26,603 nucleotides of DNA from Thermodesulfobacteriota bacterium (GCA_041572575.1 JBFFSH010000032.1:1-26603); one strand, 5' to 3'; counted from the first letter of the stretch, positions 309 to 24,668 are shown. A program made the numbers and translations. Notes: generated by a model not told the origin, from the sequence alone.

Positions 309-3300
309 CTAGCAATCAGAATCAGCTGCATCTATAAGTCCGTCACAATCATTATCTAAACCGTCTGAACATCTTGGTCCTTTTTCTTTTGAATGTGTAG
401 GTACACAGCTGCATGCAAGATCTCCGCTGCAATCGATATCATTACAGTCGATATCGCTGTCACAATCATCATCAATACCATCTGAACACATACTCTCTGA
501 TACCGGAGGTGTTCCACAGTCAGCAGAACATGTACACATATCCTCTCCACTCTCACACACTGCATCACCACACACAGGAGGCGGGCAGTCTATACCACAG
601 CTCGAGGTGTCTTCAGCTCCCTCACAGATAAGATCACCACAGCAGTAAGGTACTGAAGAGGTTTCAGTACATGAGAACGGGTCATTGTTGCACTGACTGC
701 TTCCACATACTCCACCTTCGCCACAGCAGTATTGAGTCTTTGGATTACCCTTGGTTTTTGAATTGCAGTCAGATGGACATGAGTTACAGTCTTCACCATC
801 AGCCGTCTCACATATTCCGTTTCCACATGAAGGACCGCTGCCTGATATGCAGTCATTTGGACAATTATTACAGTCTTCGGAGCCTGAACAAACTCCATCG
901 TTATTACATAAAGGTGGAGGGGTAGGAGTTGGGGTTGGAGTAGGAGTAGGTGTCGGTATTGTATTAATAATTTCATAATTTGCATTATCTGAACCCGTAA
1001 ATGTCTGCTCATTATCATCCGTAGCTTCCGCAGTAATCGGATAATCCGCATCTGCCGCACCTGGATCGGATGTCACACTCCAATCTACATTTGTTGACTG
1101 TCCGGAATCCAGATTCACTGTGGATGGATTAAAATTAGAACCCCATCCGCCGGGTACACTCGAGCTCATTGTAAAGCTTGTCGATGCACAGGCAAGGTTA
1201 TGAACATTTTGTACCGAGACTGTATAATTGAGCGTTTCCCCAGCCGTACCCGTCTGATCTGCAGGAGAGACTGAAATAATAGGACTTGCCTGCTCACAGA
1301 ACTGAAAAATGTATATACCGCCCTCAAGATTTGTCTTACCCGGTGCTCCGATAATTGCAGTTCTTCCGGATATATCAATCGATGATCCAAAGCTTATTCC
1401 TGTTGTTCCCTGATCTGTAACAATTGAGTCACCGTTTCCATTAACCGCAATCCAGAACGGTTCCTCAAATTGAGGCCCTGTACCTATTGCATTTCCAGAA
1501 AGTACTGTCCGGTTGCCGGTTGCAGGATCAATCACCAAAACCTCATCTCTAAAATTATCTACAACGGCAAGCTCTCCGCTAGCAAGTGTCGCTATGCCTT
1601 CAGGGAACTGAAGATCCGGGCCTGTACCGGTTGTATCATCTGCTATAATGGAACATGCACCTGTTGTGCTGTTGACTTCCAATATCGCCCAGTCTTCTAT
1701 TACTGAGGTTGACTCATTAAGATCAATGACTACTACTGCAAGATTATTGCTTGCCATTATATCTATTCCTAGCGGACGATTAAAAGACCTTCCCGCTACA
1801 CATGAAGTAGTATCAGCAAGTTGCTGAACATTACCCGTGGAGGTGTTTACTCGAGCTATTGACGGTTCAATTATATCTACACAACCCACGCAGCCAAACT
1901 GAAAACAGTCCGGCGGTATACAATCGGGATCGAGAGCACAATCGAAGCACTGTTGAGTACCATTTTCAATTATCATTTGTAAGTCAGTAACCACTACATT
2001 ACCGCTGCCCTCAAGCGCTATTCCAAATGGAAAACCGAGTGCTGGATAGCTGCCAGTATTATTAACTATTGATCTGCTGCCACTTACTCCGTCTATTTGT
2101 ATTACTATTGCACTTCCGGGGTCTGTGACAAATAGGTCTCCACCGCCGTCAAAATCAAGATCTATAGGTAGTACAAATGGAATTGAAGGAGCACCCGAAT
2201 TGTCTTCATATATAGCCTGGTTACCTGTAGCCGGGTCTACAGAAATGATTGCAGGTATACCCTTATCTGCTATTAAATATTTCTCTCCAGGACCAGGGTT
2301 TTCAACAACTATACCCTCGGGTTCTGATAACAAATTGCCGGTTCCCGTTGTATTGTCAGATACAATTGATCTGTTTCCTGTTGTGTCATCTATTTCAAAT
2401 ACTCCCAGTCCTTTCAGTGCACCAGTGCCGGGAGCCGCATCCGAAGCAGTAAATTTTTCAAGCGCTCCCCATGTACCGCTGAGCTCAGAGCCATAAAATG
2501 CTCCCGAACCATTTCCTCCGTCGTCATCCCCCGGAGAACCTACGAACATAAGGTCAGACATCACTACAACTGCTGAGCCAAGTGCATCAAAATCTTCGGC
2601 ATCAGACGCAGTCAATTTAATTATCTGCCCCCAATTATTAGCTCCGCCCTCGTCCCTTCCGAAAAAGTACACTGAGCCAGCATCTATTGTTGTTCCAAGA
2701 TCATCTGCTCCTGCACCAACAACGACTGTATCCATATCGATTGACACAGATATACCAAACACGTCATCATCCGCTGCATCAGAGGCTGAAATTTTCGAAA
2801 CCTCACCCCAGTTATCGGCACCGCCCTGATTCCTGTCATATACATAAGCTGCTCCAGAAATTGATACCCCGGCAATACTATGTGCAGGAGCACCGATTAC
2901 TGCCGTATCGACACTGATAGAAGACGCAAACCCAAAACTGTCATCTACCACTCCGTCAGATGCGGCAACTTTAGCTACTTGTCCCCAATTATCTACTCCT
3001 CCCTGGTCTTTCTGAAACACATAAGCCGCACCTTGTCCGCTGCTGTCACCCGGGGCTCCAACAATTAGTGTTTCTCCGTCTATTGTCACAGAAAATCCAA
3101 ACTGATTCCCTACTGTTCCATCAGTGGCTTCAAGTCTTTTGACTTGTCCCCAATTGTCTACCCCGCCTTGATTCCGAGAGAATATATATACCGCTCCCTC
3201 GTCCGTAGGACAGGAAGAAGTGGTTGTTATTGTATTTGCACCTACTGCGATAACATCTCCGCTTACGTCCACTGAAAATCCAAATGTTTTGCAGGCAGCT

Positions 3301-4286
3301 GCATCTGATGGTGTAATCTTTTTAAATTCACCCCAGTTGTTTACCCCACCTGAATCCTTTGTATGTATATATGCAGACCCAGAGAGGTCACCGTTATCAT
3401 TATCACCGGGAGACCCAACAATTGCCACATGGCCATCTATACCTACAGACTGGCCATATTTTGCAAGTACATCCGGATCACTGGCTGTGTGAATCAGTGT
3501 TTCCTGAATCATAATTGGGTCAATGACAATAGGATAAACAGCATTATTATCATCAATTTTTATTGATATAATATCATCGCTGATGCTCATAGAAGATGGA
3601 AGAACCTTTCTATTAGAGTCATAAGCTAATAGTTTTGAGTAGTTAAATTTTACTTCTCCGTTGTCTTTTTTCCATATTATTTCCTTACCGTATTTTTTTA
3701 CTTCTGGATGGAGTCTTGTGTCATATTCAACTTGTAATATGAGATTTGATTTATCATTATTTTCATTAGGTGAGCTGTATACGGTAAAACCCTGTTCGAG
3801 ACCAAACGGCTTATTTACATACCATTCTGTAATATTTCCCCGTTCATAATTTATTTTGTTAGCTGATGTAGATATATATGGCACAGATACTGGAGCAATT
3901 TCATTTTCATAGCCGAAACCCTTAAATCTAAGTCCAATATGCCATGTTGAAGTTTTATTGTATAAAGGAGTGATAGTGAGTCCATGATCATTAAAAGTTG
4001 CTGACAGATTATTCCTCTTAGTCTGTGCTTTATAAGTTCCGTCTACATCTTTTATGATCTTATAATCATCAATGTTCCTTCCAGTAGTTTCCAGAAGCAA
4101 TGGAACCAGCCTTTCGGGAATTCTGGGTTTATCCTCTTGTGTGATTACTTTCCGGGATGTATTAATATTGTTATCTGAGCTTAGAATCTGCCTTGAATTA
4201 TTGTTGAAAAGTACAAATACTGAAACAATTAAACAAAGAAATACTGCAGCTCCTATAAATATAGGATATTTAAGTTTGTTAATCAT
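309..4286 (-). CDS. Large secreted/membrane-anchored FG-GAP repeat (integrin-alpha-like propeller) protein with NHL-like propeller, NEW3/Ig-like domain, Pro-Thr linker and Cys-rich tail; putative adhesin
   Basis: N-terminal hydrophobic helix; EWYVN..GLEQGF..YPIVIDP domain typical of such proteins; ~7 TASD..FG.SV.I.GD..VVGA repeats; P.GI...G...V.D repeats; PTPTPT linker; DGxDxDCDGxID motifs; SD GGAGCGGG upstream. Confidence 0.85.
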   Translation of the reverse strand: MINKLKYPIFIGAAVFLCLIVSVFVLFNNNSRQILSSDNNINTSRKVITQEDKPRIPERLVPLLLETTGRNIDDYKIIKDVDGTYKAQTKRNNLSATFNDHGLTITPLYNKTSTWHIGLRFKGFGYENEIAPVSVPYISTSANKINYERGNITEWYVNKPFGLEQGFTVYSSPNENNDKSNLILQVEYDTRLHPEVKKYGKEIIWKKDNGEVKFNYSKLLAYDSNRKVLPSSMSISDDIISIKIDDNNAVYPIVIDPIMIQETLIHTASDPDVLAKYGQSVGIDGHVAIVGSPGDNDNGDLSGSAYIHTKDSGGVNNWGEFKKITPSDAAACKTFGFSVDVSGDVIAVGANTITTTSSCPTDEGAVYIFSRNQGGVDNWGQVKRLEATDGTVGNQFGFSVTIDGETLIVGAPGDSSGQGAAYVFQKDQGGVDNWGQVAKVAASDGVVDDSFGFASSISVDTAVIGAPAHSIAGVSISGAAYVYDRNQGGADNWGEVSKISASDAADDDVFGISVSIDMDTVVVGAGADDLGTTIDAGSVYFFGRDEGGANNWGQIIKLTASDAEDFDALGSAVVVMSDLMFVGSPGDDDGGNGSGAFYGSELSGTWGALEKFTASDAAPGTGALKGLGVFEIDDTTGNRSIVSDNTTGTGNLLSEPEGIVVENPGPGEKYLIADKGIPAIISVDPATGNQAIYEDNSGAPSIPFVLPIDLDFDGGGDLFVTDPGSAIVIQIDGVSGSRSIVNNTGSYPALGFPFGIALEGSGNVVVTDLQMIIENGTQQCFDCALDPDCIPPDCFQFGCVGCVDIIEPSIARVNTSTGNVQQLADTTSCVAGRSFNRPLGIDIMASNNLAVVVIDLNESTSVIEDWAILEVNSTTGACSIIADDTTGTGPDLQFPEGIATLASGELAVVDNFRDEVLVIDPATGNRTVLSGNAIGTGPQFEEPFWIAVNGNGDSIVTDQGTTGISFGSSIDISGRTAIIGAPGKTNLEGGIYIFQFCEQASPIISVSPADQTGTAGETLNYTVSVQNVHNLACASTSFTMSSSVPGGWGSNFNPSTVNLDSGQSTNVDWSVTSDPGAADADYPITAEATDDNEQTFTGSDNANYEIINTIPTPTPTPTPTPTPPPLCNNDGVCSGSEDCNNCPNDCISGSGPSCGNGICETADGEDCNSCPSDCNSKTKGNPKTQYCCGEGGVCGSSQCNNDPFSCTETSSVPYCCGDLICEGAEDTSSCGIDCPPPVCGDAVCESGEDMCTCSADCGTPPVSESMCSDGIDDDCDSDIDCNDIDCSGDLACSCVPTHSKEKGPRCSDGLDNDCDGLIDAADSDC

Positions 4287-4429
4287 TTTCCCCGCTCCTT
4301 TATTAAAGAATTATGATTAATTAAAAGTTTATTGTTTTATTACATATAAGTCTTCAACCCCACAAGATAAAACTCTTCTGCAAAGATTATTGGGACTTAT
4401 GGGATCAGGAAAAAGAGAAGTGATACCCG

Positions 4430-4522
4430 ATGTCAGCAGCCTGGCAGCCTGATTTCTCTCGAAACTTACGGCCCAATAGCTTTGCGTCCCACCCTTTCAA
4501 GTGGTTTGCCTTTTCTTATCGT
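4430..4522 (-). promoter_or_regulatory. c-di-GMP-I (GEMM) riboswitch
   Basis: Minus strand reads GGCAAACCACTT-GAAA-GGGTGGGACGCAAAGC...GGCCGTAA...AGGCTGCCAGGCTGCTGA, matching the GEMM consensus with a GNRA tetraloop and GACGCAAAGC junction. Located in the 5' UTR of the 1325-aa gene. Confidence 0.93.
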
Positions 4523-4530
4523 ACATTTAG

Positions 4531-4559
4531 ATATTAATTTTTATTAATAAAGAAGTCAA
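4531..4559 (-). promoter_or_regulatory. sigma70-type promoter for the riboswitch/adhesin transcript
   Basis: TTGACT-17 nt-TAATAT on the minus strand, putting the start site just ahead of the aptamer. Confidence 0.6.
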
Positions 4560-4584
4560 TAAAAATATTTTTATTTAAATTGTA

Positions 4585-6513
4585 TTAGCAGTCCGGATCG
4601 GCCCCGTCTGTAAATCCATCACAGTCATTGTCTAACCCGTCTGAACATCTTTTACCCTTTTCATTTGAATGAGTCGGCGTACAAGAACTACTGCATGCAG
4701 GATCCGAATCACAGTCACTGTCACTGCAATCTATAGCACCGTCACAATCATCATCACCGCCATCAGAGCATGACAATTCAGAAGCTGGTGGTGTACCACA
4801 GTCTGCAGAGCATGAGCAAATGTCTTCTCCTGTATCACAAGTGCCGTCACCACATACCGGTGGCGATCCGCAGTCAAGCTCACAGCTGCTGCTGTCTTCT
4901 GCACCCTCACATACTGCATCCCCACAGCAGTAAGACGCCGAAGTTGTTTCAGTACATGAGTATGGATCGGCATTACACTGGCTGCTGCCGCATACTCCAC
5001 CATCACCACAGCAATAGTGAGTCTTTGGATTGCCCTTGGTTTTTGAGTCGCAGTCAGAAGCACAGGAATTACAGTCTTCTCCTGCCGCTGCCTCACATAT
5101 TCCATTGCCGCATGAAGGTCCGCTTCCGGAAACACAATCGGATGGGCATGAATTACAGTCCTCCCCTATATCACAAGCTCCATTACCACATGTACTGCAT
5201 GTACCGCAGTCAGTCTCACATGTAGTACAGGTTTCATCCCCGTCACATGTGCCGTCTCCACAGCTTGAGCATGAACCGCAATCAGAAGGGCATGAAGAAC
5301 ATGTCTCTGAAGATTCACAAGTACCGTTTCCACATTCATCTGGTGTCGGGTCTAATACACCAGAACAGTCTCCAAGAGTATTTGTTGCATCTCCTCCTGC
5401 ACCAAATGTTACAGTTGCTACGACACATTTTACAGGTGCTTGTTGTGCGCTGGGTCCAGTAAGTTCATTGAATGCAAGGTTAATATAATAGCCGCTTATA
5501 TGAAATTTTTGTGTCTGTATTCTGATACCGTTAAAAAGACCAACCTGGTAGTCGTTAGGATCAGCCGCGTCCATATGAATATGCGGATCATAAGAGTTTG
5601 GATGATCTGCATGATAAGGACATTCGTTTACCCCCCCACTATCAAAACTCTCCCAAGGAACGCTCGAGCTGTCTTTATGAGTGTACTGCCTGTTCCATAG
5701 ATTTACATCAAACCATGAGGGGTTTACATTATAACCAAGAGAATCTGCAGTATTTCCCGGTTGCTGAACCAAATTGTCAGATTGGTCATATAAAAATAGT
5801 TCTACTCTGTTTATATCAACCCTGGGTGATTCTACAGTGATCTGAACAAACGGTTGAGAAAGATCTGCAATGGTACTATTAAAAGTAATAGTTGCCGAAT
5901 CTGTACTCACATACGGCAAGATTCCTACAGGGTTAATGCAGTCTCTTTGCCAGCTTGAAAACGGGTCTTCGGGCTTAGCATCCCTTATTTCCATATGGAG
6001 GTGATCAAAACCGCTTCCACTCTCACCGGAATAACCAATAAACTGTCCTTTGCTTACATTTTGTCCCTGGTTAACCACAGCGCTGTCCATATGAAGGTAG
6101 TTGCTGTGATAACATCCAGAATTGCTGCATGAGGTCTCGCCGTTTCTAAAATGCCTAATGATTATTACAGGATCAGAATAGCTTGGATGGTCACCCGCCG
6201 TTCTAACTTCACCGTCGGCAACTGCAAATACCGGTGTTCCTATAGGGGTAGCTATATCAATCCCTCTGTGAAAATCGTATCTCTCATTTTCTGATACAAG
6301 TGGCCTCGGCCCGAATACCGATCTTATCGGTAAATCTGTATGATCGGGATTTCCAAACCTTTCGGCAGGGCAGTCGTCTCCAACCTGCCATCCCGCAGGA
6401 GGATTTTCAGTAATTCTTCCGCAAAGCGGCCAGGCCATATTCGCATCAAACTGCTGAGTGAAAGCATCTGAAGATAACAAAAATACTAAAAGTAATCCTA
6501 AAAATCGATACAT
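4585..6513 (-). CDS. Secreted M23-family metallopeptidase with Cys-rich C-terminal repeats
   Basis: Signal peptide; HRGID (HxxxD) and HLH zinc motifs, plus YLHM and GYSGESG; CGxGxC...ExCxxCxxDC repeats; SD GGAGG. Confidence 0.88.
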   Translation of the reverse strand: MYRFLGLLLVFLLSSDAFTQQFDANMAWPLCGRITENPPAGWQVGDDCPAERFGNPDHTDLPIRSVFGPRPLVSENERYDFHRGIDIATPIGTPVFAVADGEVRTAGDHPSYSDPVIIIRHFRNGETSCSNSGCYHSNYLHMDSAVVNQGQNVSKGQFIGYSGESGSGFDHLHMEIRDAKPEDPFSSWQRDCINPVGILPYVSTDSATITFNSTIADLSQPFVQITVESPRVDINRVELFLYDQSDNLVQQPGNTADSLGYNVNPSWFDVNLWNRQYTHKDSSSVPWESFDSGGVNECPYHADHPNSYDPHIHMDAADPNDYQVGLFNGIRIQTQKFHISGYYINLAFNELTGPSAQQAPVKCVVATVTFGAGGDATNTLGDCSGVLDPTPDECGNGTCESSETCSSCPSDCGSCSSCGDGTCDGDETCTTCETDCGTCSTCGNGACDIGEDCNSCPSDCVSGSGPSCGNGICEAAAGEDCNSCASDCDSKTKGNPKTHYCCGDGGVCGSSQCNADPYSCTETTSASYCCGDAVCEGAEDSSSCELDCGSPPVCGDGTCDTGEDICSCSADCGTPPASELSCSDGGDDDCDGAIDCSDSDCDSDPACSSSCTPTHSNEKGKRCSDGLDNDCDGFTDGADPDC

Positions 6514-7984: not shown

Positions 7985-8524
7985 TTAGTTATGCTCCTCG
8001 GCAAATAAATTATTCCACTTAATAGATTTACTTAAATATTTAGCTGCAGACACTATAAAATTATATTTATTTTGATCAAACTTGTTTATATAAGAAGTCC
8101 AAACAAGAATTGCACCCTTTGGTTTAGACAGGCTATCCACATTATCCTTTATGGGAAATCCAATAAATCCTTTTTGTATATTCATACCAAATTTGTTCGA
8201 TATCATTCTAAAATTTGTATCTTGTGATTCTAATACACTATTGGATTTAATAATGTTTCTTGCCAGATATTTTGTCTTTTCAATTCTTGAGAAATTCCTC
8301 GGGAAATCCTGATGCATATTTCTGTGAACTACTAATCTTAATTCATTGTTTTCTTCATCCACTATATAAATCATAAGATTGGCAATTTCTTTTATGCCTA
8401 TAAGATAATCAGCAAAACTGCTAAATATCTGGTCAATTACCTGCTGAGTTTTATAATCATAAGCAACACCCGGATCTAAATCACTGCTTCTAATATGAGA
8501 AGATATATTCATCATTGCCTCCAT
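7985..8524 (-). CDS. Stand-alone GAF-domain protein
   Basis: MIYIVDEENNELRLVVHRN ... FIGFPI ... GAILVW ... C-terminal helix pattern of GAF folds; no output domain. Confidence 0.7.
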   Translation of the reverse strand: MEAMMNISSHIRSSDLDPGVAYDYKTQQVIDQIFSSFADYLIGIKEIANLMIYIVDEENNELRLVVHRNMHQDFPRNFSRIEKTKYLARNIIKSNSVLESQDTNFRMISNKFGMNIQKGFIGFPIKDNVDSLSKPKGAILVWTSYINKFDQNKYNFIVSAAKYLSKSIKWNNLFAEEHN

Positions 8525-10027: not shown

Positions 10028-10588
10028 TTAAGAATTTAGGCTGATTTTAAAACGTTCCTGCCAGTTACCTCTCTTTTCTTCATATTTCATAGCCCATGCT
10101 ATGGATGTGGCTATCTGATTTACAAGATATAGTAGTGTCTTATCTTTTTGAGGATCATAGTTATATTCATCATCACTGAAAATCCATAAAGCCCCTTGAG
10201 CATCGCCAGTGTAGCTTAGAGAAATAGGAATACCTAATGCACCTTTTTTGTTTAGTGATCTTAAATCAAATCCAAATGATTCATCTTCCTGTACATTTTT
10301 AATATTTATAATCTTATTCTCTTTTATTACTTCCCATAATTTACCGCTCGATTCATCCATTTCCGATGAACTCTCTACATACCTTGGAGGTACATTTTTC
10401 TTTCCGGTTAGATGAGCCTTCCCTGTATCTTTATCAAGTAAATAAATCATCACGACATCAATATTGTAAAAATCCGTCAGATAATTCATTGATGTCTCAA
10501 ACAGATTCTCTGTTTCGTTTGTAGAACTCGCAAGCTTGTTTAAGTTCCTCATAACTTCTTCCTGATTTACTTCAGCATGTTGGATCAT
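10028..10588 (-). CDS. Stand-alone GAF-domain protein
   Basis: MIYLLDKDTG..L, INIKNVQED, ALGIPI, GALWIFS and LVNQIATSI are GAF hallmarks; SD GGAGG. Confidence 0.8.
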   Translation of the reverse strand: MIQHAEVNQEEVMRNLNKLASSTNETENLFETSMNYLTDFYNIDVVMIYLLDKDTGKAHLTGKKNVPPRYVESSSEMDESSGKLWEVIKENKIINIKNVQEDESFGFDLRSLNKKGALGIPISLSYTGDAQGALWIFSDDEYNYDPQKDKTLLYLVNQIATSIAWAMKYEEKRGNWQERFKISLNS

Positions 10589-15724: not shown

Positions 15725-15798
15725 TGGGGCATAGTACAATGGCAGTGCGGCGGACTCTGGCTCCGCAAATCTAGGTTCGAATCCTAGTGCCCCAGCCA
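15725..15798 (+). tRNA. tRNA-Gln (anticodon CTG)
   Basis: Cloverleaf: acceptor TGGGGCA/TGCCCCA (U1-A72), anticodon arm GCGGA-CT CTG GC-TCCGC, T arm CTAGG-TTCGAAT-CCTAG, 3' GCCA. Confidence 0.97.
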
Positions 15799-17265
15799 TT
15801 CAGAATAGGTAGTGCAATCTACCATTAAATCGAATGGTTTTTTCAAATGATATTCGAGGGTTACGCCTCTTAACTGCAAGTTCGAAAATACATAGTTTAT
15901 AAGTTTGCGTTTTTGCTCTATATTCGAACTTTCAAATATTTCATATGCCTTGGATGCTAGAGAAAGTACAGTCTTTACAGTAACTTGGAAAGATTCATCA
16001 GCTTTGAGATATTTTTTTATTTGTTCATTAATATCGTACTGCCTATTTTTGAGCTCTTGACATTTTCTTTCATGGTCATCCGAAGTAATACTCTCATCTA
16101 TTAATAGGTCTAGTAGCCTATCTAATTTCTTTTGTATATCTTTATTTTCTTTTTCTAGTTCAGTTATAGCCCTTGCCTGATGATCTTTTTCTGAATCGTG
16201 CATAACTTTCAAATGTTCAGTAACTGATAAAAGCATATCTTTTTCAATTCTTATAGACTGAAACACATCTTTAATTTGATCTAGCACTATTTTTTCTGGA
16301 ACGAACATTTTTTTACCCGGATTATTCGGGTCTCTACAAATTAGATATACATATTTACCTTTCTTTAAATCAGAAGTAACAGCTTTTCCAGAAATAGCAC
16401 ATGTTAACAATCCTCTGAAAATGAATGGTTTTTTAGTCTGTCTAGGAGCTTTTGAATTTGAACGCCCTGTTCTAATTTGCTGACATTTATCCCAAGTAAA
16501 TTTATCAATTATTGGTGGATATTTATGTTTATATAGTTTTCCAACTGACAACATTTCCCCATAGTAAAATGGGTTCTTAATCATATGATGTATTTGACTT
16601 GTTGATAAGTAAGTTTTTGTATTTTCTTTATTTCTAAGACCCCACTCTTTAGCTTTTTTTGCTAATTCTCCAAATGAATATGCACCAGTTGAATATTCAA
16701 CAAACAATTTCTTAACTACAAATGCTCAGTCTTTATCAATAACAATTGAATTTCTACCACTATCGTTATCAGAAACATTCGTATAGCCTATAGGAGCCTT
16801 GCCACCCCATTCACCATTCTCTCTTTTTGTATGTAAAGCACTTCTGACTTTCTCACTTAATATATCTACTTGATTTTGTGCTACTGCAATGCCAATATTC
16901 CATACGAGTTTATCACTTGCACTAGAATGCTTATGAATAATTTTATTTTCGTTAATAAAATGTATTTCAATGATCTCATCGTTAATATAATTATCTAACA
17001 AAGGATACTCTTTAAAACTTCTCTGCAATCGGTCTATGTGTGTAACGACTAAAGCGATAGTTGAATGTTGTCTGCTGATATAATCTAGCATTGCTCTAAA
17101 TTCTTTTCTATCTCCACGAGTAGAAGATTCTACAATCTGATATGTTTTGATAACATCTAAATTTTTTCTATTACAGTAATCGGTTAACTGTTCAGTTTGT
17201 GTTTGTATACTGTAGCCATCTTGCTGTTCCTTACTTGATACCCTTGCTAAAATTATTGCTTTCAT
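15784..17265 (-). pseudogene. Large serine recombinase (493 codons) interrupted by one in-frame TGA at 16726-16728
   Basis: True start MKAIILARVSS (ATG 17265); catalytic RVSS..Q, ES and DRLQR motifs; recombinase domain NPFYYG, HKYPPII; coiled coil. The two track ORFs are in one frame: ..IDKD*AFVVKKLFVEYSTG.. Confidence 0.88.
15789..15795 (+). repeat. Left attachment-site core (GCCCCAG) inside the tRNA acceptor stem
   Basis: Context GTTCGAA-tcct-AGTGCCCCAG, shared with the right junction. Confidence 0.6.
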
Positions 17266-17287
17266 AATACTAATTATTGCTCCTTTC

Positions 17288-20200
17288 TTACATAAACTCA
17301 ATCTTATCAATCTCGCCCATGAGCCGGCCGGTCTCTGTGAGCGCGACGATGATCTTCTGGTAGTGCATGATGTCTTCAAATGAGAGCCTGCGTCCTTTTC
17401 TGTCTTTGAGCCATTTCTGGGCGGGCTGGTAGCCGCCGATGTAAAATTCCCACGCCGTCTGCGGGACATTATCAAAATACTGCGTCTCGTTGATCCAGAC
17501 CCTGCCGCCCGCATATTTAACCCTGCCGACCTCGTTGTCCCCGCTCTGCGGATAGTTGGTTATACGCTGACTGACCACGGGCGATTCGAGCAGGTGGATT
17601 TGCCTTATCTGCCCGCCAAGCTCAACCAGCTTCCAAAAAGTTTCTGCGTCTTTTGGATAAGGAACCCTCGGAAAATCTATCTTTAAAAACTCCTTAAACT
17701 TCTCCCTGTAAGAAGGGGAGTGGAGCACGGCGTATATGTAGTCCAGAATATCTATGGGCGCAAATGTATTTTCGGTCTCCTCTTTTTCATTTGTAAATGT
17801 CATCCCCAGCCCGGCCTCAATCTCCTTTACTATATCCGGATTCAAATTCGGCGTTCTGCCGGTATTACCTTCCAATGACCCCTGCTCATTGTCTGGGTAG
17901 AGGTAGAGTGGGAATACATAATTTAGTTCACCTGTCTGCATAGAAACATTGCATCTTTCAGATATTGTATTTGAAAGAAATATATGTTGGAAATCAAACG
18001 ATGTTTGTCTTTTACACAAAAGTAGAGCTATATTTTTCTTAAATAGTAAATGTCTCATCACATCATGCCTGGGTCTCCATAATATTCCTTGGCTATTTTC
18101 TGAATATAGTGTATGTCTGATATCGAATGGTCTGTAAGATATCAGTGTTTTAACATGTTCACTAGCACTCTCTACATCATTTTTTACTTGTAGTGTCTTG
18201 TGATGAGCTAAATTATATTTTTTGGATATTTCACTTACATCTAAATTCAATAAGTCTAGCTCGAGTTGCTTTGTCTCAATATCAGTGAAATTTATAACAA
18301 ATTTATCCTTAGCTGTTTCTATGCCTGAACTGTAAATCTTCAACATTTCATTAATAGGAAAATATGAATTATATTCATCTTCAGAAGCAAAATCTTTTGG
18401 AACGAAAAAATAATAATTATTTTTCGGATTTAATCTCTTCCATTCAATTGATTTTATATCAGATTCAAACAAATACTTATATTTTTCATCTTCAATTCCA
18501 TATACATCGCAGTGATAAATATCTGTAGGATTATTTCTATCAGTGGTCTTGATAAAAATATTAATACTTACACCGATTATGATATCAAACACGTTGTCGT
18601 CCTTATCTCCACTAGGTGTTGTTTCGTTTTTTCTAGTACTACCATGCAAGTCTAAAATATATATTTTATTAAAACTATCCATTAGAGACCTTCTCATAAT
18701 TCTATGAGTAGTACCATCTAGAAAACTATTATTTGATATAAATGCAAGTACTCCTTCTCCATTTTTTTCTATTATATGTTGGGCATATCTTATAAACTTA
18801 ATATAATCATCTTCAATATTATGTTTTCTTTCATTCAACCCCTTTTTATAATCAGTAATAAGGTTCTGAATCCATTCCCCTTTATTACTACTACTCACAC
18901 TATACGGCGGATTGCCGAGGACGACCATCACGGGGGTGTCGCGTTTTACCTCGTTTGCCTATTTGGCCTCGTTGGCAAGCCATGTTGAAAACAGGCTTCC
19001 GGTCTCCTCGTGATACTCTTCAAGCGCATTGGTGAGGTAAACCTTGAGCCGCTTGTTAGACTGGTGCTTGTAGCCGGTCTCTTCCAAAAGCATGCCGAGC
19101 TTGAGGTGCGCCATGGCATAGGGAGCCATGAGGATTTCAAAGCCGTGCAGGCGCGGTATGAGGTGCTCGTCCACGTAATTGTTCCAGATGCCCTGCCGTC
19201 CCTCAAAGCATTTGTGTATCTGCCTTATGACCTCGGCAAGGAACGTGCCCGTGCCGCAGGCGGGGTCGAGTATCTGCACCCTGTGAACCTCTTTGTCTAT
19301 GTTCCTGTAGCCCGAGCTGTAACGCTGGTCTGCCACCTGCGTGTCCTGCTTTAGCGTGATCCTGGACGTGTCGGCAAGCCCTGCCGAAAGCCCGAACTCG
19401 GTCTTTAAAATATCATCCACCGCCCGCACTATGAAGTTCACCACAGGCTCCGGCGTGTACCACACCCCGCGGCTCTTTCTCAGCTTTGGGTCATACTCCG
19501 AGAGAAACGTCTCGTAGAAATGAATAATGGGGTCGTGCTGCTGCGTGGCCCTGCCAAAGTTTTGCAGGAGAGCCTTTACGTCTGTGAGCCTGAATATATC
19601 GGCAAGCGAGTTCACTATCCACTTCTGCCTGTCATCCAGATCATATCCGGCGATGTCATGAAAGAGCTTTCTTAAGAAAGGGTTAGTCTTCGGGATAAGC
19701 TCTGCCGCCTCCTGCCGTGAAAAATCCCCGAGCGTGGGATCGTGAAGACGCGCGGCAAACATGCCGTAGGCGATGGTCTGGGCATAGATGTCGGCAAATG
19801 TCTTCGGGTCTATGTCGTGAATCAACACCTTCTTAAAAGCCTCGAGCTGCTGTTTGATGTCACTCTCTGCGTTTTCTTCCAAATCCTTTATCAATGCGTT
19901 TTCAATAACATGCGCAAACATCCGCGCCTTTGCCGCCATGAGCTTTGATAGCCTCGATGCGGACTTTATCGTCTGCCCCACGAACCGGCAGAAGTTAGTG
20001 ATGAGGTCTGTGAAGTGGTCGAAATTTTCAGGCATAGGAAGGACGGAGTTTCCTTCTCTCTTTCCTATTTCCACGGTCTCTTTAAGCTCGCCGTATTCGT
20101 AGAAGCGGAATTCGATGTAATTTGTGATGATGAGGTTTTCGAGCGCCGCCCTGTAGCGGTCGAACTGCTCTTTGAATTCCTTATTGTCTAGGTCTTTGTC

Positions 20201-20419
20201 TATGTCCTTTGCCTCGATAAACCCGATGTGTATGTCGCCCTTTGATATGAGATAGTCCGGCGACCCGCAGTCTGTGACCTTCGAGGGCTCGTTTGTGATG
20301 AGATAGCCCGCCGGCGCCATCTTCTTTAGCAGGTCGTGCAGGTCGGGCCTGTAGCCGTGCTCTTTTGTGTGTCCTGATTGATGCCTTTTATTAAGATCAT
20401 TTATATATTCTGCGAGCAT
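17288..20419 (-). pseudogene. Type IIG/ISP-like fused endonuclease / N6-adenine methyltransferase / specificity protein (1043 codons) interrupted by one in-frame TAG at 18959-18961
   Basis: PD..EAK nuclease motif, GVWYTP, motif I ILDPACGTGTF, motif IV GNPPY, and C-terminal YIYAVLHSPSYR..DFPRVP..IGGYQ..KWLKDRK. Junction reads ..LANEAK*ANEVKRDTPVMVVLGNPPY. Confidence 0.88.
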
Positions 20420-20421
20420 AA

Positions 20422-21582
20422 TTAATTTAAAACCTTATGTTTATTTGATTGAAATACATCAGACATTTCCAATTTGTTAAATTTATTTAAATCTGCATAT
20501 ACTTTTTTAAACATGTCTGTCTTATTAACAGACTTGAAATCAATATTATCAAGATCAGATTTTAAATTGTACCACGACCTGTCTGATTGGTTATCAAGCA
20601 AATTCCTCAGACCCTTGGATCCTATTGATTCAATTATATAGATAGCGCCAATTAATTGAAGTATTTTTGAATTTTTATAGTTTGCAGCTTTATTTATTTG
20701 AATAAAGTAATCCTCTGGCTTTATTTGTTTATCCACACCTATAAACCATTCATCAAATATAGCATCAAAATGGTAAAGTAAGATTTTCTTAGAAATAGTA
20801 CTATTAAATAAATTGTTGGATGTAATTCCCGAATTAATACCCGTCTTTTTCAGTATGTTTTCTATAGTTCTCTTATTACCCAATCTTATCTCCATTCTAA
20901 TAACATCAGGGTTATTAGTTTCTTTATATTTCTTGAATAAATCAAGCTGCATGTCATTATCCCTTTCTATTGCTCTTTTATCTGACACCTTAGCCTTTTC
21001 GAGGTCTTTAATCTTATCATAAAACACTATTTGATATGAGTTAGTATGATAACGTAAAGCATGACCGCCATTTCTAAAATCTGTAGTGCTTAAATCTAAT
21101 CGTTTACTGATGTTAACTTTATTTAATTCAGATAATATCATGGCACTATTCAGGTGTTTATCCAAGATTATATTCTTTGAGTAATGAATCGAAGATACTT
21201 TGGCATTTTTCAGTGCATCAATAGTAGTAACAACACCCATAATTAATAATTGATCTTTTAGCTTGTAAATCAGCCTATCAAAATCGTTATCTTCCAGTTC
21301 ATCGAAGTTATTTCCAAATAATAGTTTAGGAGCTGAAAACTCTATTTTGAGCTGAACAAAAAAGCCATTAGGTTTATTTCTCATAAAAAGTGTGAGTCTG
21401 GGTAAATATCCATGCCTTTTTTTATCATCTTTTGTAGGATTATTTACTGATCTCAGATAGTTTCTATTGGATAACTTATAATACGGTTCAAACATTATGT
21501 TTTCAGCACTAGGATTAAACCTTTGAGGTTTATTAATTAAGAATGAAGGTCTTTCTAAAATTATTGAGACAGTATCTATCAT
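20422..21582 (-). CDS. Putative rolling-circle replication initiator/relaxase (Rep_trans, phage gene II/X-like)
   Basis: Likely start MIDTV (ATG 21582, 4 nt after the upstream stop); EFSAPKLLFGNN, FYDK (candidate catalytic Tyr) and RMEIRL motifs. Confidence 0.65.
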   Translation of the reverse strand: MIDTVSIILERPSFLINKPQRFNPSAENIMFEPYYKLSNRNYLRSVNNPTKDDKKRHGYLPRLTLFMRNKPNGFFVQLKIEFSAPKLLFGNNFDELEDNDFDRLIYKLKDQLLIMGVVTTIDALKNAKVSSIHYSKNIILDKHLNSAMILSELNKVNISKRLDLSTTDFRNGGHALRYHTNSYQIVFYDKIKDLEKAKVSDKRAIERDNDMQLDLFKKYKETNNPDVIRMEIRLGNKRTIENILKKTGINSGITSNNLFNSTISKKILLYHFDAIFDEWFIGVDKQIKPEDYFIQINKAANYKNSKILQLIGAIYIIESIGSKGLRNLLDNQSDRSWYNLKSDLDNIDFKSVNKTDMFKKVYADLNKFNKLEMSDVFQSNKHKVLN

Positions 21583-21586
21583 ATCT

Positions 21587-21781
21587 TTAGTGTTTATAAA
21601 TATTGATTTCCTCTGTAGATTGAGAATTATCATCATTTTTAATATTGAGATTGTTTTCCTTAACGATTTCCAGAAGAGTTTCGAAGAAACCTAAAAGATT
21701 AGATTCTGATTCTATTTCATTAGAACCCGGATATTTTTCTTCAAGAAGATTTCTTAATGATGGATACAAATCTTTCTTCAT
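21587..21781 (-). CDS. Small hypothetical protein (64 aa) coupled to the rep gene
   Basis: ATG at 21781 preferred over the GTG at 21826; helical NLLGFFETLLEI motif; stop abuts the rep start. Confidence 0.55.
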   Translation of the reverse strand: MKKDLYPSLRNLLEEKYPGSNEIESESNLLGFFETLLEIVKENNLNIKNDDNSQSTEEINIYKH

Positions 21782-21873
21782 ATATATACAGCATATGAAG
21801 AAGAATTGATTTGTCGTTTCAGTCACCCAGTTTCACCACAAATCACCACAAATTGGGGTACTTTTAGCAATAT

Positions 21874-22587
21874 TCAGGTGATTTTAATGTGATTAATACC
21901 TAGATCATCAAGTGTCTGTTTATCGACTGGATTTCTGAACATTATGTTGGTTTTATTAATTGAAAAAAAAGCTCGGCCTAATTCTTTTTTAAATCCAAGC
22001 TCCTTAACAATATCATGTAAACGTTTAGCACCTAATTTAACACGTGCTTCATTTATTAATTGATCTCTTGTAACCAAATTATTAGGGTTTGTGTATAAAT
22101 AACTAAATACTAAATCATTAACACTGTTAAAATTAGGTCTTGCCAAAAGAAAGATATCATTAAGTATGATTTCTCTATTATCAGTATATTTAATATTAAG
22201 AGACTTTTCTTCAGTTGGTTTACTAGATTTCGATTTTACTTTTCTTTCAATATGTTTTGCATTGGCAAGTATATATTCTTTGTAAAAACCATCAAATTTC
22301 CTCAATAATTTTAATTTGTAGCTTTCTTCCACTATTGGATTTATTTCTATACCAAAGTTTTCATCTCTAAATAATTTTCTTGGTGATTTACATGAAAGCG
22401 ATTGAATTTTGATGATCTTGTCATCTTTTTCGAATTTGTGGAGTAAGTTATCTAAATCAATTATAGAGAGTTTCTTAGTCCAATCACCATTTGGATGTAA
22501 CAATACTGTATCACCTTTAGGCGATTGTTTTTGTATTGATTTAATAGCGACCAAGACAAAAAAAGTATTTATTATTGTGTCCATCAA
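21874..22587 (-). CDS. Hypothetical protein with possible C-terminal winged-helix domain
   Basis: 237-aa ORF in AT-rich DNA; VFSYLYTNPNNLVTRDQL resembles OmpR-type winged-helix segments. Confidence 0.6.
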   Translation of the reverse strand: MMDTIINTFFVLVAIKSIQKQSPKGDTVLLHPNGDWTKKLSIIDLDNLLHKFEKDDKIIKIQSLSCKSPRKLFRDENFGIEINPIVEESYKLKLLRKFDGFYKEYILANAKHIERKVKSKSSKPTEEKSLNIKYTDNREIILNDIFLLARPNFNSVNDLVFSYLYTNPNNLVTRDQLINEARVKLGAKRLHDIVKELGFKKELGRAFFSINKTNIMFRNPVDKQTLDDLGINHIKIT

Positions 22588-22665
22588 TTAAATTTTAATT
22601 GGATATAATACTTATTTATACTAGAATTAAATATTAATATATTTCCATAATAATATACATATAAT

Positions 22666-23616
22666 ATGAACAAAAATTTAGGGACATTAAATAGAGTTGA
22701 TTTAAGAGATTTTTGGAAAGATGAAGCTAGAGAATTTACACCTTGGCTATCCAAAGAAGAAAACCTCAATATTTTAGCTAATACTTTAGGACTTGATTTG
22801 GAATTGGTCAATACAGAAGTACATGTTGGAAATTTTAATGCCGATATTTTAGCCCATGATATTTCAGATGAAAGAAAAGTAATAATTGAAAATCAGCTAG
22901 AAAAGACTAATCATGATCATTTAGGCAAAATAATAACATATGCATCGGGCCTTGATGCTGAAGTAATTGTTTGGATATGTAGTAAAGTTACAGCTGAACA
23001 CCGTAAAGCAATTGATTGGTTAAATGAAATAACAGACGAAAAAATATCTTTCTTCGCATTAGAAATAGAATTGTGGCAAATCAACGATTCAGCACTAGCA
23101 CCAAAATTTAATATTGTTTGTAGTCCAAATGAATGGGCTAAATATGTCAAGAAAACCGCGACCCAGAGAGAGTTAACCGAAACAAAGCAACTTCAATATG
23201 AATTTTGGAATTCATTTAAAGAATATATGGAAGAAATAGGCACATCTTTAAAATTAAGGACACCAAGACCAGCACATTGGTATAGTGTCTCAGTAGGTAG
23301 GTCACAATTTACTATCGGTTTAACAGTAAATACACAGCTGAAAAGATTAGGATGTGAAATATATATAAGGGGAGTAAATGCCAAACGCGCTTTTTCAGCT
23401 TTAAAAGAGCAAATACATGATATTGAAAGTGAATTAGGATATGAATTAGATTGGCAGGAATTACCCGATAAACAGGATGCTAGGATAATATATTATACAG
23501 ATGGGAATATTTTAAACCGTAACTCTTGGAATCAACATTTTTCGTGGTTTAAAGAACACTCTGAGAGTTTTCATCGAGTTTTTTCTAAAAGAATAAGGAA
23601 TATTAATTTATCTTAA
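22666..23616 (+). CDS. DUF4268-type protein with N-terminal endonuclease-like (PD-(D/E)XK) domain
   Basis: EAREFTPWL, ADIL..VIIENQL..HDHLGK, Q..FW..F and IESELG..LDW motifs. Confidence 0.8.
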   Translation: MNKNLGTLNRVDLRDFWKDEAREFTPWLSKEENLNILANTLGLDLELVNTEVHVGNFNADILAHDISDERKVIIENQLEKTNHDHLGKIITYASGLDAEVIVWICSKVTAEHRKAIDWLNEITDEKISFFALEIELWQINDSALAPKFNIVCSPNEWAKYVKKTATQRELTETKQLQYEFWNSFKEYMEEIGTSLKLRTPRPAHWYSVSVGRSQFTIGLTVNTQLKRLGCEIYIRGVNAKRAFSALKEQIHDIESELGYELDWQELPDKQDARIIYYTDGNILNRNSWNQHFSWFKEHSESFHRVFSKRIRNINLS

Positions 23617-23620
23617 TTGG

Positions 23621-24376
23621 ATGTCAGAATTTTATACTCCGAAAAAAACTAGAAATCTTTACGATCCTGAGAACACAAGGCCGTTCAAATTAAGCAGATC
23701 AAAAATAGAATTATTCATGGAATGTCCTAAGTGCTTCTATTTAGATAACAAAATAGGAGTCAGAAGGCCACCTGGCTTTCCATTTGCTCTAAATAGTGCT
23801 GTTGATGCATTACTAAAAAAAGAGTTTGATTTATATCGAGAAGATGGAACTAAACATCCGATAATCATTGAGTATGGTGTGGATGCAATCCCTGCAAAAC
23901 ATGTGGATTTAGATGATTGGAGAAACAATTTCAGAGGTGTTCAATATCTTCATGAACCTACTAATTTACTGTTATATGGGGCCATTGATGATCTGTGGAT
24001 TAACTCCAAAGACGAATATATTGTAGTTGATTATAAATCGACAGCTAAAGAAGAGGAAGTAACTGCTTTGGATAAGGACTGGATGGATGGTTATAAAAGA
24101 CAGATGGAAATATACCAGTGGTTATTAATGCAAAATGATTACAAAGTTTCAGACACTGGTTACTTTGTATATTGTAATGGAAGGACAGACCTAGATAGAT
24201 TTAGTAGAAAATTATTATTCAGAAAAACATTGATTGCATATGCTGGAAAGCATGATTGGATTGAAGATGTTGTATATAATATATATCAGTGCCTAAACTC
24301 TGAAGAAATTCCATCAAGTAATGCTAATTGTGATTTTTGTCGGTATAGAGAAGCTGTAGATGATGTACTACAGTAA
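23621..24376 (+). CDS. PD-(D/E)XK (RecB/Cas4-like) nuclease
   Basis: LSRSKI...CPKC, GAIDD, VVDYKS, QMEIY and C-terminal CDFC. Confidence 0.85.
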   Translation: MSEFYTPKKTRNLYDPENTRPFKLSRSKIELFMECPKCFYLDNKIGVRRPPGFPFALNSAVDALLKKEFDLYREDGTKHPIIIEYGVDAIPAKHVDLDDWRNNFRGVQYLHEPTNLLLYGAIDDLWINSKDEYIVVDYKSTAKEEEVTALDKDWMDGYKRQMEIYQWLLMQNDYKVSDTGYFVYCNGRTDLDRFSRKLLFRKTLIAYAGKHDWIEDVVYNIYQCLNSEEIPSSNANCDFCRYREAVDDVLQ

Positions 24377-24429
24377 AATATCATAATATTATTTGCTCTG
24401 CTTTTCGTAGAACAACCAAGTAATCCCGA

Positions 24430-24455
24430 GTTCGAAGAGTATACAAGAGCCCCAG
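24430..24455 (+). repeat. Right attachment site (core GCCCCAG at 24449-24455)
   Basis: GTTCGAA-gagtataca-AGAGCCCCAG mirrors the tRNA 3' end. The minus strand continues the recombinase frame for 22 codons to a TGA at 24381-24383. Confidence 0.6.
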
Positions 24456-24668
24456 AAATTACTTTTCAGGTTTTGGCTACAACTATTTAATAATAGTTAA
24501 TAAGACAAGAACTTTACTAAAAACAGAATAGTTTTTAACCCTTGCCACTCCTTTTGAATAAGTGTATCGCTTAGGTTAATGAGTGTGCCAAAACCAATGT
24601 AATATTGAAGACAACGGCTCTCAAATCAAGACGTACTGTTGGCCCTGGAGTGAGCAAAAACGTGTAAC

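Follow-up and report, generated by a model that had tools for sequence, protein, structure and literature searches.

Here, we describe a mobile island of ~8.7 kb in a contig of 26,603 nucleotides from a Thermodesulfobacteriota bacterium (GCA_041572575.1, JBFFSH010000032.1:1-26603; 'the window' below means this whole stretch). The island carries a gene for a large serine integrase whose 3' end is read from the antisense strand of a tRNA-Gln gene, and we regard it as nearly certain that integration swaps the tail of the integrase at the tRNA. In the integrated state, the native 22-residue tail would be replaced by one residue and a stop codon from the antisense tRNA, and excision would restore the full-length enzyme. 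On balance, we also favour the view that the full enzyme is made from the circle, and that integration amputates two helices and leaves a weaker, core-only form that favours staying integrated. The integrase copy in the window is itself unable to switch, owing to an in-frame stop at codon 180, and much of the evidence comes from public sequencing runs and from relatives of the element.

Ends of the element and the empty site

The features on which this reading is based are as follows, in window coordinates.

15725-15798, plus strand: tRNA-Gln(CTG), the target gene, with the element at its 3' end.
15775-15781, plus strand: T-loop motif GTTCGAA, tRNA copy, occupying -19 to -13 relative to the inferred crossover; it is on an attB-type arm and would be the site of the zinc-ribbon domain.
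15784-17265, minus strand: large serine integrase gene of 493 codons, with resolvase, recombinase, degenerate zinc-ribbon and coiled-coil regions; its 3' end is antisense tRNA.
15789-24448: the mobile island, bounded by two GCCCCAG cores.
15789-15795, plus strand: attL core GCCCCAG, equal to tRNA positions 67-73.
15796-15798: CCA of the tRNA, from the element side; its antisense is the conserved Trp490 of the integrase.
24381-24448, minus strand: the integrase's native C-terminal tail, left stranded here; 22 codons and a TGA, in frame after excision.
24430-24436, plus strand: right-end copy of GTTCGAA, at -24 to -18 and thus 5 bp further out, on an attP-type arm; its antisense encodes Leu-Arg-Thr of the tail.
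24449-24473, plus strand: attR core and right arm, the arm being repeated at five junctions on contig C62.

The two GCCCCAG copies (starting at 15789 and 24449) are 8660 nt apart, and the core follows GTTCGAA after 7 nt in the tRNA and after 12 nt at the right end. When the cores are joined by script, the integrase frame runs to 514 amino acids, against 493 in the integrated state, which places attP within the integrase gene, as an initial annotation of the window had proposed. The integrated gene stops at a TAG (15784-15786) that corresponds to tRNA positions 62-64 in the T-stem, and the stop of the tail (24381-24383) is 4 nt from that of a convergent nuclease gene (24374-24376). Taken singly, both a GCCCCAG 7-mer (0.33 expected per 10 kb on one strand) and an open frame of 22 codons (p ~0.26) are within chance, and outside evidence is therefore required. 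A relaxed motif-plus-core pattern peaks in this genome at the 12-nt spacing, with five matches; three occur at the tRNA's own 7 nt and 0-1 at other spacings.

Logan contigs of eight public runs (among 24 listed), most of them possibly from the source population and hence not independent, were aligned to the region. The exact empty-site joint, from 15788 to 24449 with 8660 nt skipped, is present in three of the eight: X13 (depth 16.8 at the joint, 30.6 in the element interior and 52 on both flanks), X15 (2.8 at the joint and ~6 in the element) and X4 (10 and 12.6). X7, X9 and X12 hold the occupied state only, and in X11 and X17 the element is barely covered. Further copies of the site with different upstream sequence are seen in X7, X9 and X12. 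The short side of the joint is 23 letters, which is under the 30-letter threshold for caution. The contig of the flank starts at 24449 in X13, X15 and X4 and at 24444 in other runs; this start at 24449, together with the flank depth of 52 in X13, indicates that the joint belongs to this copy and not to the repeats on C62. The joint and the sequence positions agree in setting the boundaries of the element at the two cores. None of the outcomes that the initial annotation had named as counting against it was encountered, namely a different empty-site join, a longer repeat of the tRNA 3' end further downstream, or homologs devoid of such a tail. Most simply, the element-free chromosomes represent a coexisting lineage without the element, or the action of an intact integrase from outside. 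The stretch from queF to the tRNA is unmatched in the sole genome of the same genus, which is 74% complete.

The empty site had been expected to leave a tRNA gene with no encoded CCA. The joint does lack the CCA, but this is unremarkable: only 26 of the 43 predicted tRNAs in this genome encode one, two of the 15 tRNA-Gln(CTG) genes shown for relatives do not, and a PF01743 nucleotidyltransferase is present, so that a CCA-less tRNA would be harmless. Junctions in relatives mostly keep the CCA, whereas it is absent at all six in this genome, and the empty site is therefore probably the edge of an older cassette. Likewise, the right flank is probably an older stacked cassette rather than ancestral host DNA.

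These six junctions are copies of one ~45-bp site, of which the right junction of the element is one. The other five, of 45-49 bp and with both arms, lie on contig C62 (365-6645) between blocks of 1-3 genes without an integrase. CRISPR and chance were rejected as explanations of the repeat, since its copies stand kilobases apart on either side of multi-gene blocks and code for the tail motif. C62 and the window may form one array. C62 starts with an apparent insertion sequence end, and the window ends in the start of an IS3 element. Across the order, 21 of 101 genomes contain the left arm, which often occurs in several copies downstream of tRNA-Gln; a reversed control gave none. A few of these hits are unrelated matches in coding sequence.

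Letters common to the paired sites of relatives narrow the crossover to tRNA positions 71-73, and we place it provisionally at C71-A72 (15793-15794), the centre from which the positions of GTTCGAA above are counted. For the Listeria LI/A118 integrase, the zinc-ribbon domain is described at positions 11-19 in attB and 16-24 in attP (Rutherford 2013, PMC3783163). The left-arm motif of our element, at positions 13-19 and 18-24, falls within these two ranges and shows the same 5-bp shift, and the motif or a near variant stands at the attP spacing in all 11 of 11 hand-picked native-tail loci. The Listeria system has the motif on both arms and its attP outside the gene (PMC3783163), whereas here the motif is on left arms only and attP is inside the gene. 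By analogy, the zinc-ribbon domain would read GTTCGAA in both attB and attP. Recognition of the T-loop could in turn explain how one clade reaches many tRNA types, as a cut at tRNA positions 71-72 would make many of them usable as targets.

The integrase and its two tails among relatives

The two pieces of the broken integrase match the resolvase domain with its catalytic serine (PF00239, E 3e-24) and the recombinase domain (PF07508, E 6e-11); Ser10 is invariant among 73 homologs, and the zinc-ribbon match is weak (PF13408, 22 bits against a cut-off of 25.3). These are serine-family domains, not those of a tyrosine recombinase of the Mx8/SSV1 type, and the protein scores far below the SCCmec Ccr and XisF families of NCBIfam (83 against 900 bits for CcrB, 84 against 375 bits for XisF). 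Among 121 aligned proteins, Trp490, the antisense of the CCA, is kept in 117, and the residue replaced by the in-frame TGA (16726-16728, codon 180) is Arg in 114. A frameshift was rejected as the cause of the break, which is an in-frame stop, and so was recoding of the codon, because TGA serves as an ordinary stop here, ending 185 of 1046 long open reading frames (ORFs) of the genome. An assembly error was likewise rejected: the same stop, with no alternative letter, is present in all seven runs whose contigs cover the position, some of them possibly from the source sample, and the downstream piece of 307 amino acids occurs on 64 contigs. This copy is probably a dead remnant, and the earlier proposal that it switches between two isoforms fails on the stop at codon 180 and on the missing circle junction described below.

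The genome has only one other homolog, on contig C24. It is 28% identical, shares the layout but with antisense tRNA-His at its end, and probably does not act on this element. This homolog is an intact integrase of 494 amino acids within a paralogous element (C24:1-4193), which has homologs of the Rep-like gene and whose far end runs off the contig; no convincing right end was found for it on C24. The same arrangement at tRNA-His is seen in four relatives (G025, G030, G034 and G087).

The two C-terminal classes predicted for homologs were recovered when 119 protein homologs were sorted by an alignment-based tail classifier. Ninety-nine are tRNA-like, with 55 stopping within four residues of the Trp and 44 continuing through the T-arm; 11 have a native tail of the form W-x7-R-T, seven have other ends and two are partial. 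A second survey drew on genomes, viral contigs and metagenomes and covered 191 loci, L153 and L154 having been dropped as they gave no profile hit. An overlap with a tRNA or transfer-messenger RNA (tmRNA) gene, under 16 ARAGORN labels, is present in 92 of them; 15 were flagged as native-tail, of which L112 and L118 proved false on inspection, leaving 13; 27 are short, and 57 are unclassified, many because of contig ends or uncalled tRNAs. Hosts include Alphaproteobacteria, Chlamydiota, Patescibacteria and Bdellovibrionales. The CCA is read as an in-frame Trp in 64/91 or 58/91 cases, depending on which of two anchorings is used in an automatic, uncurated count. A protein search with the tail only (P0026, residues 470-521) returned the query itself, and a search of GenBank phages gave just two unannotated records.

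Near-identical enzymes occur in both tail states. L141 and L142 agree at every one of 298 nt and differ from a point 6 nt inside tRNA-Gln onwards, and L148/L150 (tmRNA) and L273/L283 (tRNA-Thr) are same-enzyme pairs of this kind. In L283, a 770-bp HNH-like mini-cassette (2987-3829) lies between tRNA-Thr and the resident integrase, which consequently has its native tail in the chromosome. L263, L103, L095 and L116 are integrated and have their native tail at a distal site 8-9 kb upstream, these four sites being detected only by BLAST with natural tails. L215 is likely to be a free circle of such an element: this contig of 12,648 nt has a 167-nt terminal repeat at 99.4%, making it circular at ~12.5 kb, and encodes a native-tail integrase of 518 amino acids (46% identical to the one described here), Rep and a type I restriction-modification system, with no tRNA. 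The terminal-repeat test, which allowed mismatches, found nothing comparable in any of the 92 tRNA-type loci.

L103 and L116 are tRNA-Tyr elements of ~8-9 kb in chlamydial and other genomes. The far end of L116 is followed by tRNA-Thr and tuf, so that the element splits the core tRNA-tuf cluster.

Judged from their pattern of substitution, the stranded tails of relatives are under purifying selection at the protein level. Among 18 tail copies from relatives, which were grouped by DNA identity alone, the ratio of non-synonymous to synonymous change (pN/pS) is 0.31 in the integrase frame, with a stop in 1/18; in the remaining five frames it is 0.71-2.15, and between 10 and 18 of the 18 copies contain stops. 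Change falls mostly on the third position in codons 10-28 (0.19, 0.17 and 0.38 for the three positions), and identity among the copies drops from 75% to 33% beyond the stop. The tail in the window matches 11 natural tails over its first seven scored residues, a level reached by 6e-5 of 142,011 background windows.

An AlphaFold model of the homolog P0046 (73 sequences, mean pLDDT 89) places helices at residues 485-497 and 500-510. Solved integrases correspond to residues 1-476 of this model (Z 15-18, root-mean-square deviation 9-17 Å), and their alignment ends at 473-484; the integrated form would thus keep the canonical core and lose an appendage.

Possible roles of the tail

In the scheme that we favour, the tail would comprise two helices past the shared integrase core, and the circle would depend on it to integrate efficiently; in roughly half of the clade, an end in AA would also make the circle form short-lived. 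The initial annotation had suggested that the two forms may differ in activity or directionality; of such differences, reduced activity in the integrated state is the likeliest, and there is a precedent for lower activity in Mx8, as cited in PMC4701971.

Several observations weigh against this scheme. No circle junction of the element, for which the initial annotation had proposed a search, was found among the contigs of the eight runs, and contigs drop rare variants. Among the matches listed there is no intact homolog above 70% identity, and the enzyme here is broken. The five copies on C62 show no tail similarity beyond Arg-Thr, and the 12 residues that follow the matching part of the window's tail do not resemble natural tails (0.13), which confines the resemblance to the part overlapping the att site. 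The T-loop motif is absent from its expected place on both right arms. A strict DNA search for the shifted motif plus core, in 10 kb around 56 distant tRNA-linked integrases, gave no enrichment at any shift, with 0 against 1 in the control at shift 5 for a core of 7/7 and 18 against 14 for 5/7. The copies in the selection test are close kin of one family and not independent. Lastly, the tail may be dispensable, since in the model the integrated form retains the whole canonical core.

The tail might instead be a degradation tag of the ClpXP or Tsp type, in which case integration would stabilize an otherwise identical enzyme that is poised for excision. A terminal AA is a mark of ClpX degrons, and this ending is found on 12 of the 26 distinct native tails (a set partly hand-picked and including kin), on none of 164 tRNA-derived ends and on 6 of 1334 long ORFs genome-wide. 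The tmRNA tag of the host ends in ALAA, ClpP is present, and the repressor of phage BPs offers a precedent (PMC3694055). However, the other 14 tails lack AA, including that of the window, which ends IIL, and the order-level tails, which mostly end LVG, LVS or LSG. Selection also spans the helix and not the end alone, and we consider this explanation unlikely.

We think it more doubtful still that directionality is built into the tail, the enzyme integrating with it and excising without it, with no need of a separate factor. Profile searches recognized no recombination directionality factor (RDF) among the genes of the element; the tail comes after the zinc-ribbon and coiled-coil region; right arms without the T-loop motif may make attL resemble attB; and native-tail junctions are found in chromosomes (L283 and L194). 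Against this, RDFs are diverse and either of two ORFs of the element (79 and 237 amino acids) might serve as one; intermolecular attL x attR recombination of the ordinary kind would also account for L283; and the structure model gave no contacts. Marginally the least probable is that compact design produced the overlap as a side effect, the tail aiding folding or being conserved on account of the att site, with no difference of consequence between the forms, a trivial explanation also listed by McMurdie (PMC3146451): tRNA-derived ends do vary freely from 2 to >40 residues and the strongest tail motif falls on the DNA motif, but third-position-biased change and open frames reach ~19 codons beyond the att arm, and AA ends are enriched.

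A broader extension of our scheme is, we believe, improbable as a whole. It would see a widespread clade that uses the universal tRNA T-loop as attB, retargets freely among tRNAs and employs amputation of its C-terminal helices to switch between integration and excision in place of a directionality factor, and in which a new cassette returns the tail to a resident integrase, as in L283, so that stacked islands regulate one another.

Other genes and known systems

The remaining features of the element are listed below.

16085-16093, minus strand: motif in the integrase gene, a possible rolling-circle nick site, beside which truncated remnants in relatives start.
17288-20419, minus strand: type IIG / ISP-like restriction-modification gene, interrupted by a TAG in its frame (18959-18961).
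20422-21636, minus strand: protein of 404 amino acids, candidate rolling-circle replication initiator (Phage_CRI / G2P-like lead).
21587-22587, minus strand: ORFs of 79 and 237 amino acids, the sole candidates for a directionality factor or regulator.
22666-23616, plus strand: cargo gene for a DUF4268 protein, a candidate defence gene (PADLOC PDC-S11).
23621-24376, plus strand: cargo gene for a PD-(D/E)XK nuclease, convergent with the stranded tail.

The 404-residue protein has no match in Pfam, PHROG or NCBIfam, and its homologs are present in many integrase loci. The initiator lead (score 0.96, family on 19-31% of members, recognition below 2300) makes it, as a lead only, a probable rolling-circle initiator. 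Eleven truncated integrase remnants (L027-L032 and L035-L039) start at coding nt 1167-1178, just ahead of an ATTAC motif that we take to be reminiscent of rolling-circle nick sites, and the motif at 16085-16093 is a possible site of this kind; remnants L192 and L197 start elsewhere, and L202 starts at the motif following an indel. In profile searches, the 79- and 237-residue ORFs gave no convincing family match, the best for the latter being a weak ScpB-like one (E 0.0056). The middle of the restriction-modification gene is GC-rich, at up to 57% compared with 35% element-wide, and the gene may be a mosaic. Elsewhere in the window, two large secreted proteins (309-6513, minus strand), with FG-GAP repeats and an M23 peptidase, are almost identical to each other in a cysteine-rich region at the C-terminus, and two short GAF-like paralogs (7985-8524 and 10028-10588, minus strand) have an M48 peptidase gene between them.

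The use of an attP-in-int design by a serine recombinase, for which the initial annotation had cited tyrosine integrases as precedents, has already been published (PMC3146451, PMC4701971). According to Islander (2014), no serine integrases with tRNA genes as their targets were known (PMC4383910); phiRSM is a published exception, with a small serine recombinase at tRNA-Ser and attP outside the gene (PMC3816273). The tycheposon preprint reports a large serine recombinase in 27 of 937 elements and stacking at tRNAs, and the word 'tRNA' occurs 0 times in the main text of Durrant 2022 (PMC10083194). In the openly available article texts searched, we found no description of a tRNA-targeting large-serine clade with this swap at ~13 tRNA types; the Durrant tables and the TIGER database may contain islands of this kind.

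The closest parallel is with the ssrA islands of Dehalococcoides, whose integrase is DsiB and for which McMurdie (2011) noted that dsiB always overlaps attL and proposed that full function is attained only on the circle (PMC3146451). Like ours, these islands carry a large serine recombinase gene on the opposite strand, whose 3' end lies over attL and, in the case of DsiB, stops in the RNA gene or in the next island; they also occur in tandem, many without an integrase, much as there are six junction copies here (PMC3146451). DsiB differs in targeting the T-loop of tmRNA (ssrA) with a 20-bp repeat, rather than a tRNA acceptor end with a core of <=7 bp, and in belonging to a six-gene module that includes another recombinase, DsiA, together with ParB and Mom, where our element has one recombinase and a Rep-like partner (PMC3146451). 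The likeness is one of layout; a tmRNA does form the end of L148, a distant homolog. The conjecture of 2011 becomes testable, now that the crossover has been located to within a few bases, near-identical enzymes are available in both of their natural forms and the tail is seen to be under selection. Should the tail determine activity or direction, this would be a new route of control for serine integrases. For the mining of genomes for tools, chromosomal annotation would yield the amputated integrase, whose native end is kilobases away, and the clade offers integrases aimed at conserved tRNA ends.

The attP-in-int design of Mx8 and SSV1 reportedly has a tRNA as its target. Both enzymes are tyrosine recombinases with unrelated chemistry and a much larger swap, whereas ours is of the serine family. 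In Mx8, a 112-residue end becomes one of 13 residues and activity is lowered (cited in PMC4701971), and attP is likewise inside int in SSV1 (cited in PMC4701971 and PMC4383910). Within the serine family, Ambroset (2016) described attR inside the integrase gene of streptococcal rumA integrative and conjugative elements; these are conjugative, have a protein-coding target and use triplet or single integrases of another lineage, with no antisense tRNA (PMC4701971). In the integration-dependent immunity of phage BPs, attP is also inside a gene and integration removes a C-terminal degradation tag (Broussard and Hatfull 2013, PMC3694055). There, the gene encodes a repressor, the integrase is separate and the tag has been tested, whereas in our clade the exchange befalls the integrase itself and a degron role would be read from the AA ends of 12 of the 26 native tails.

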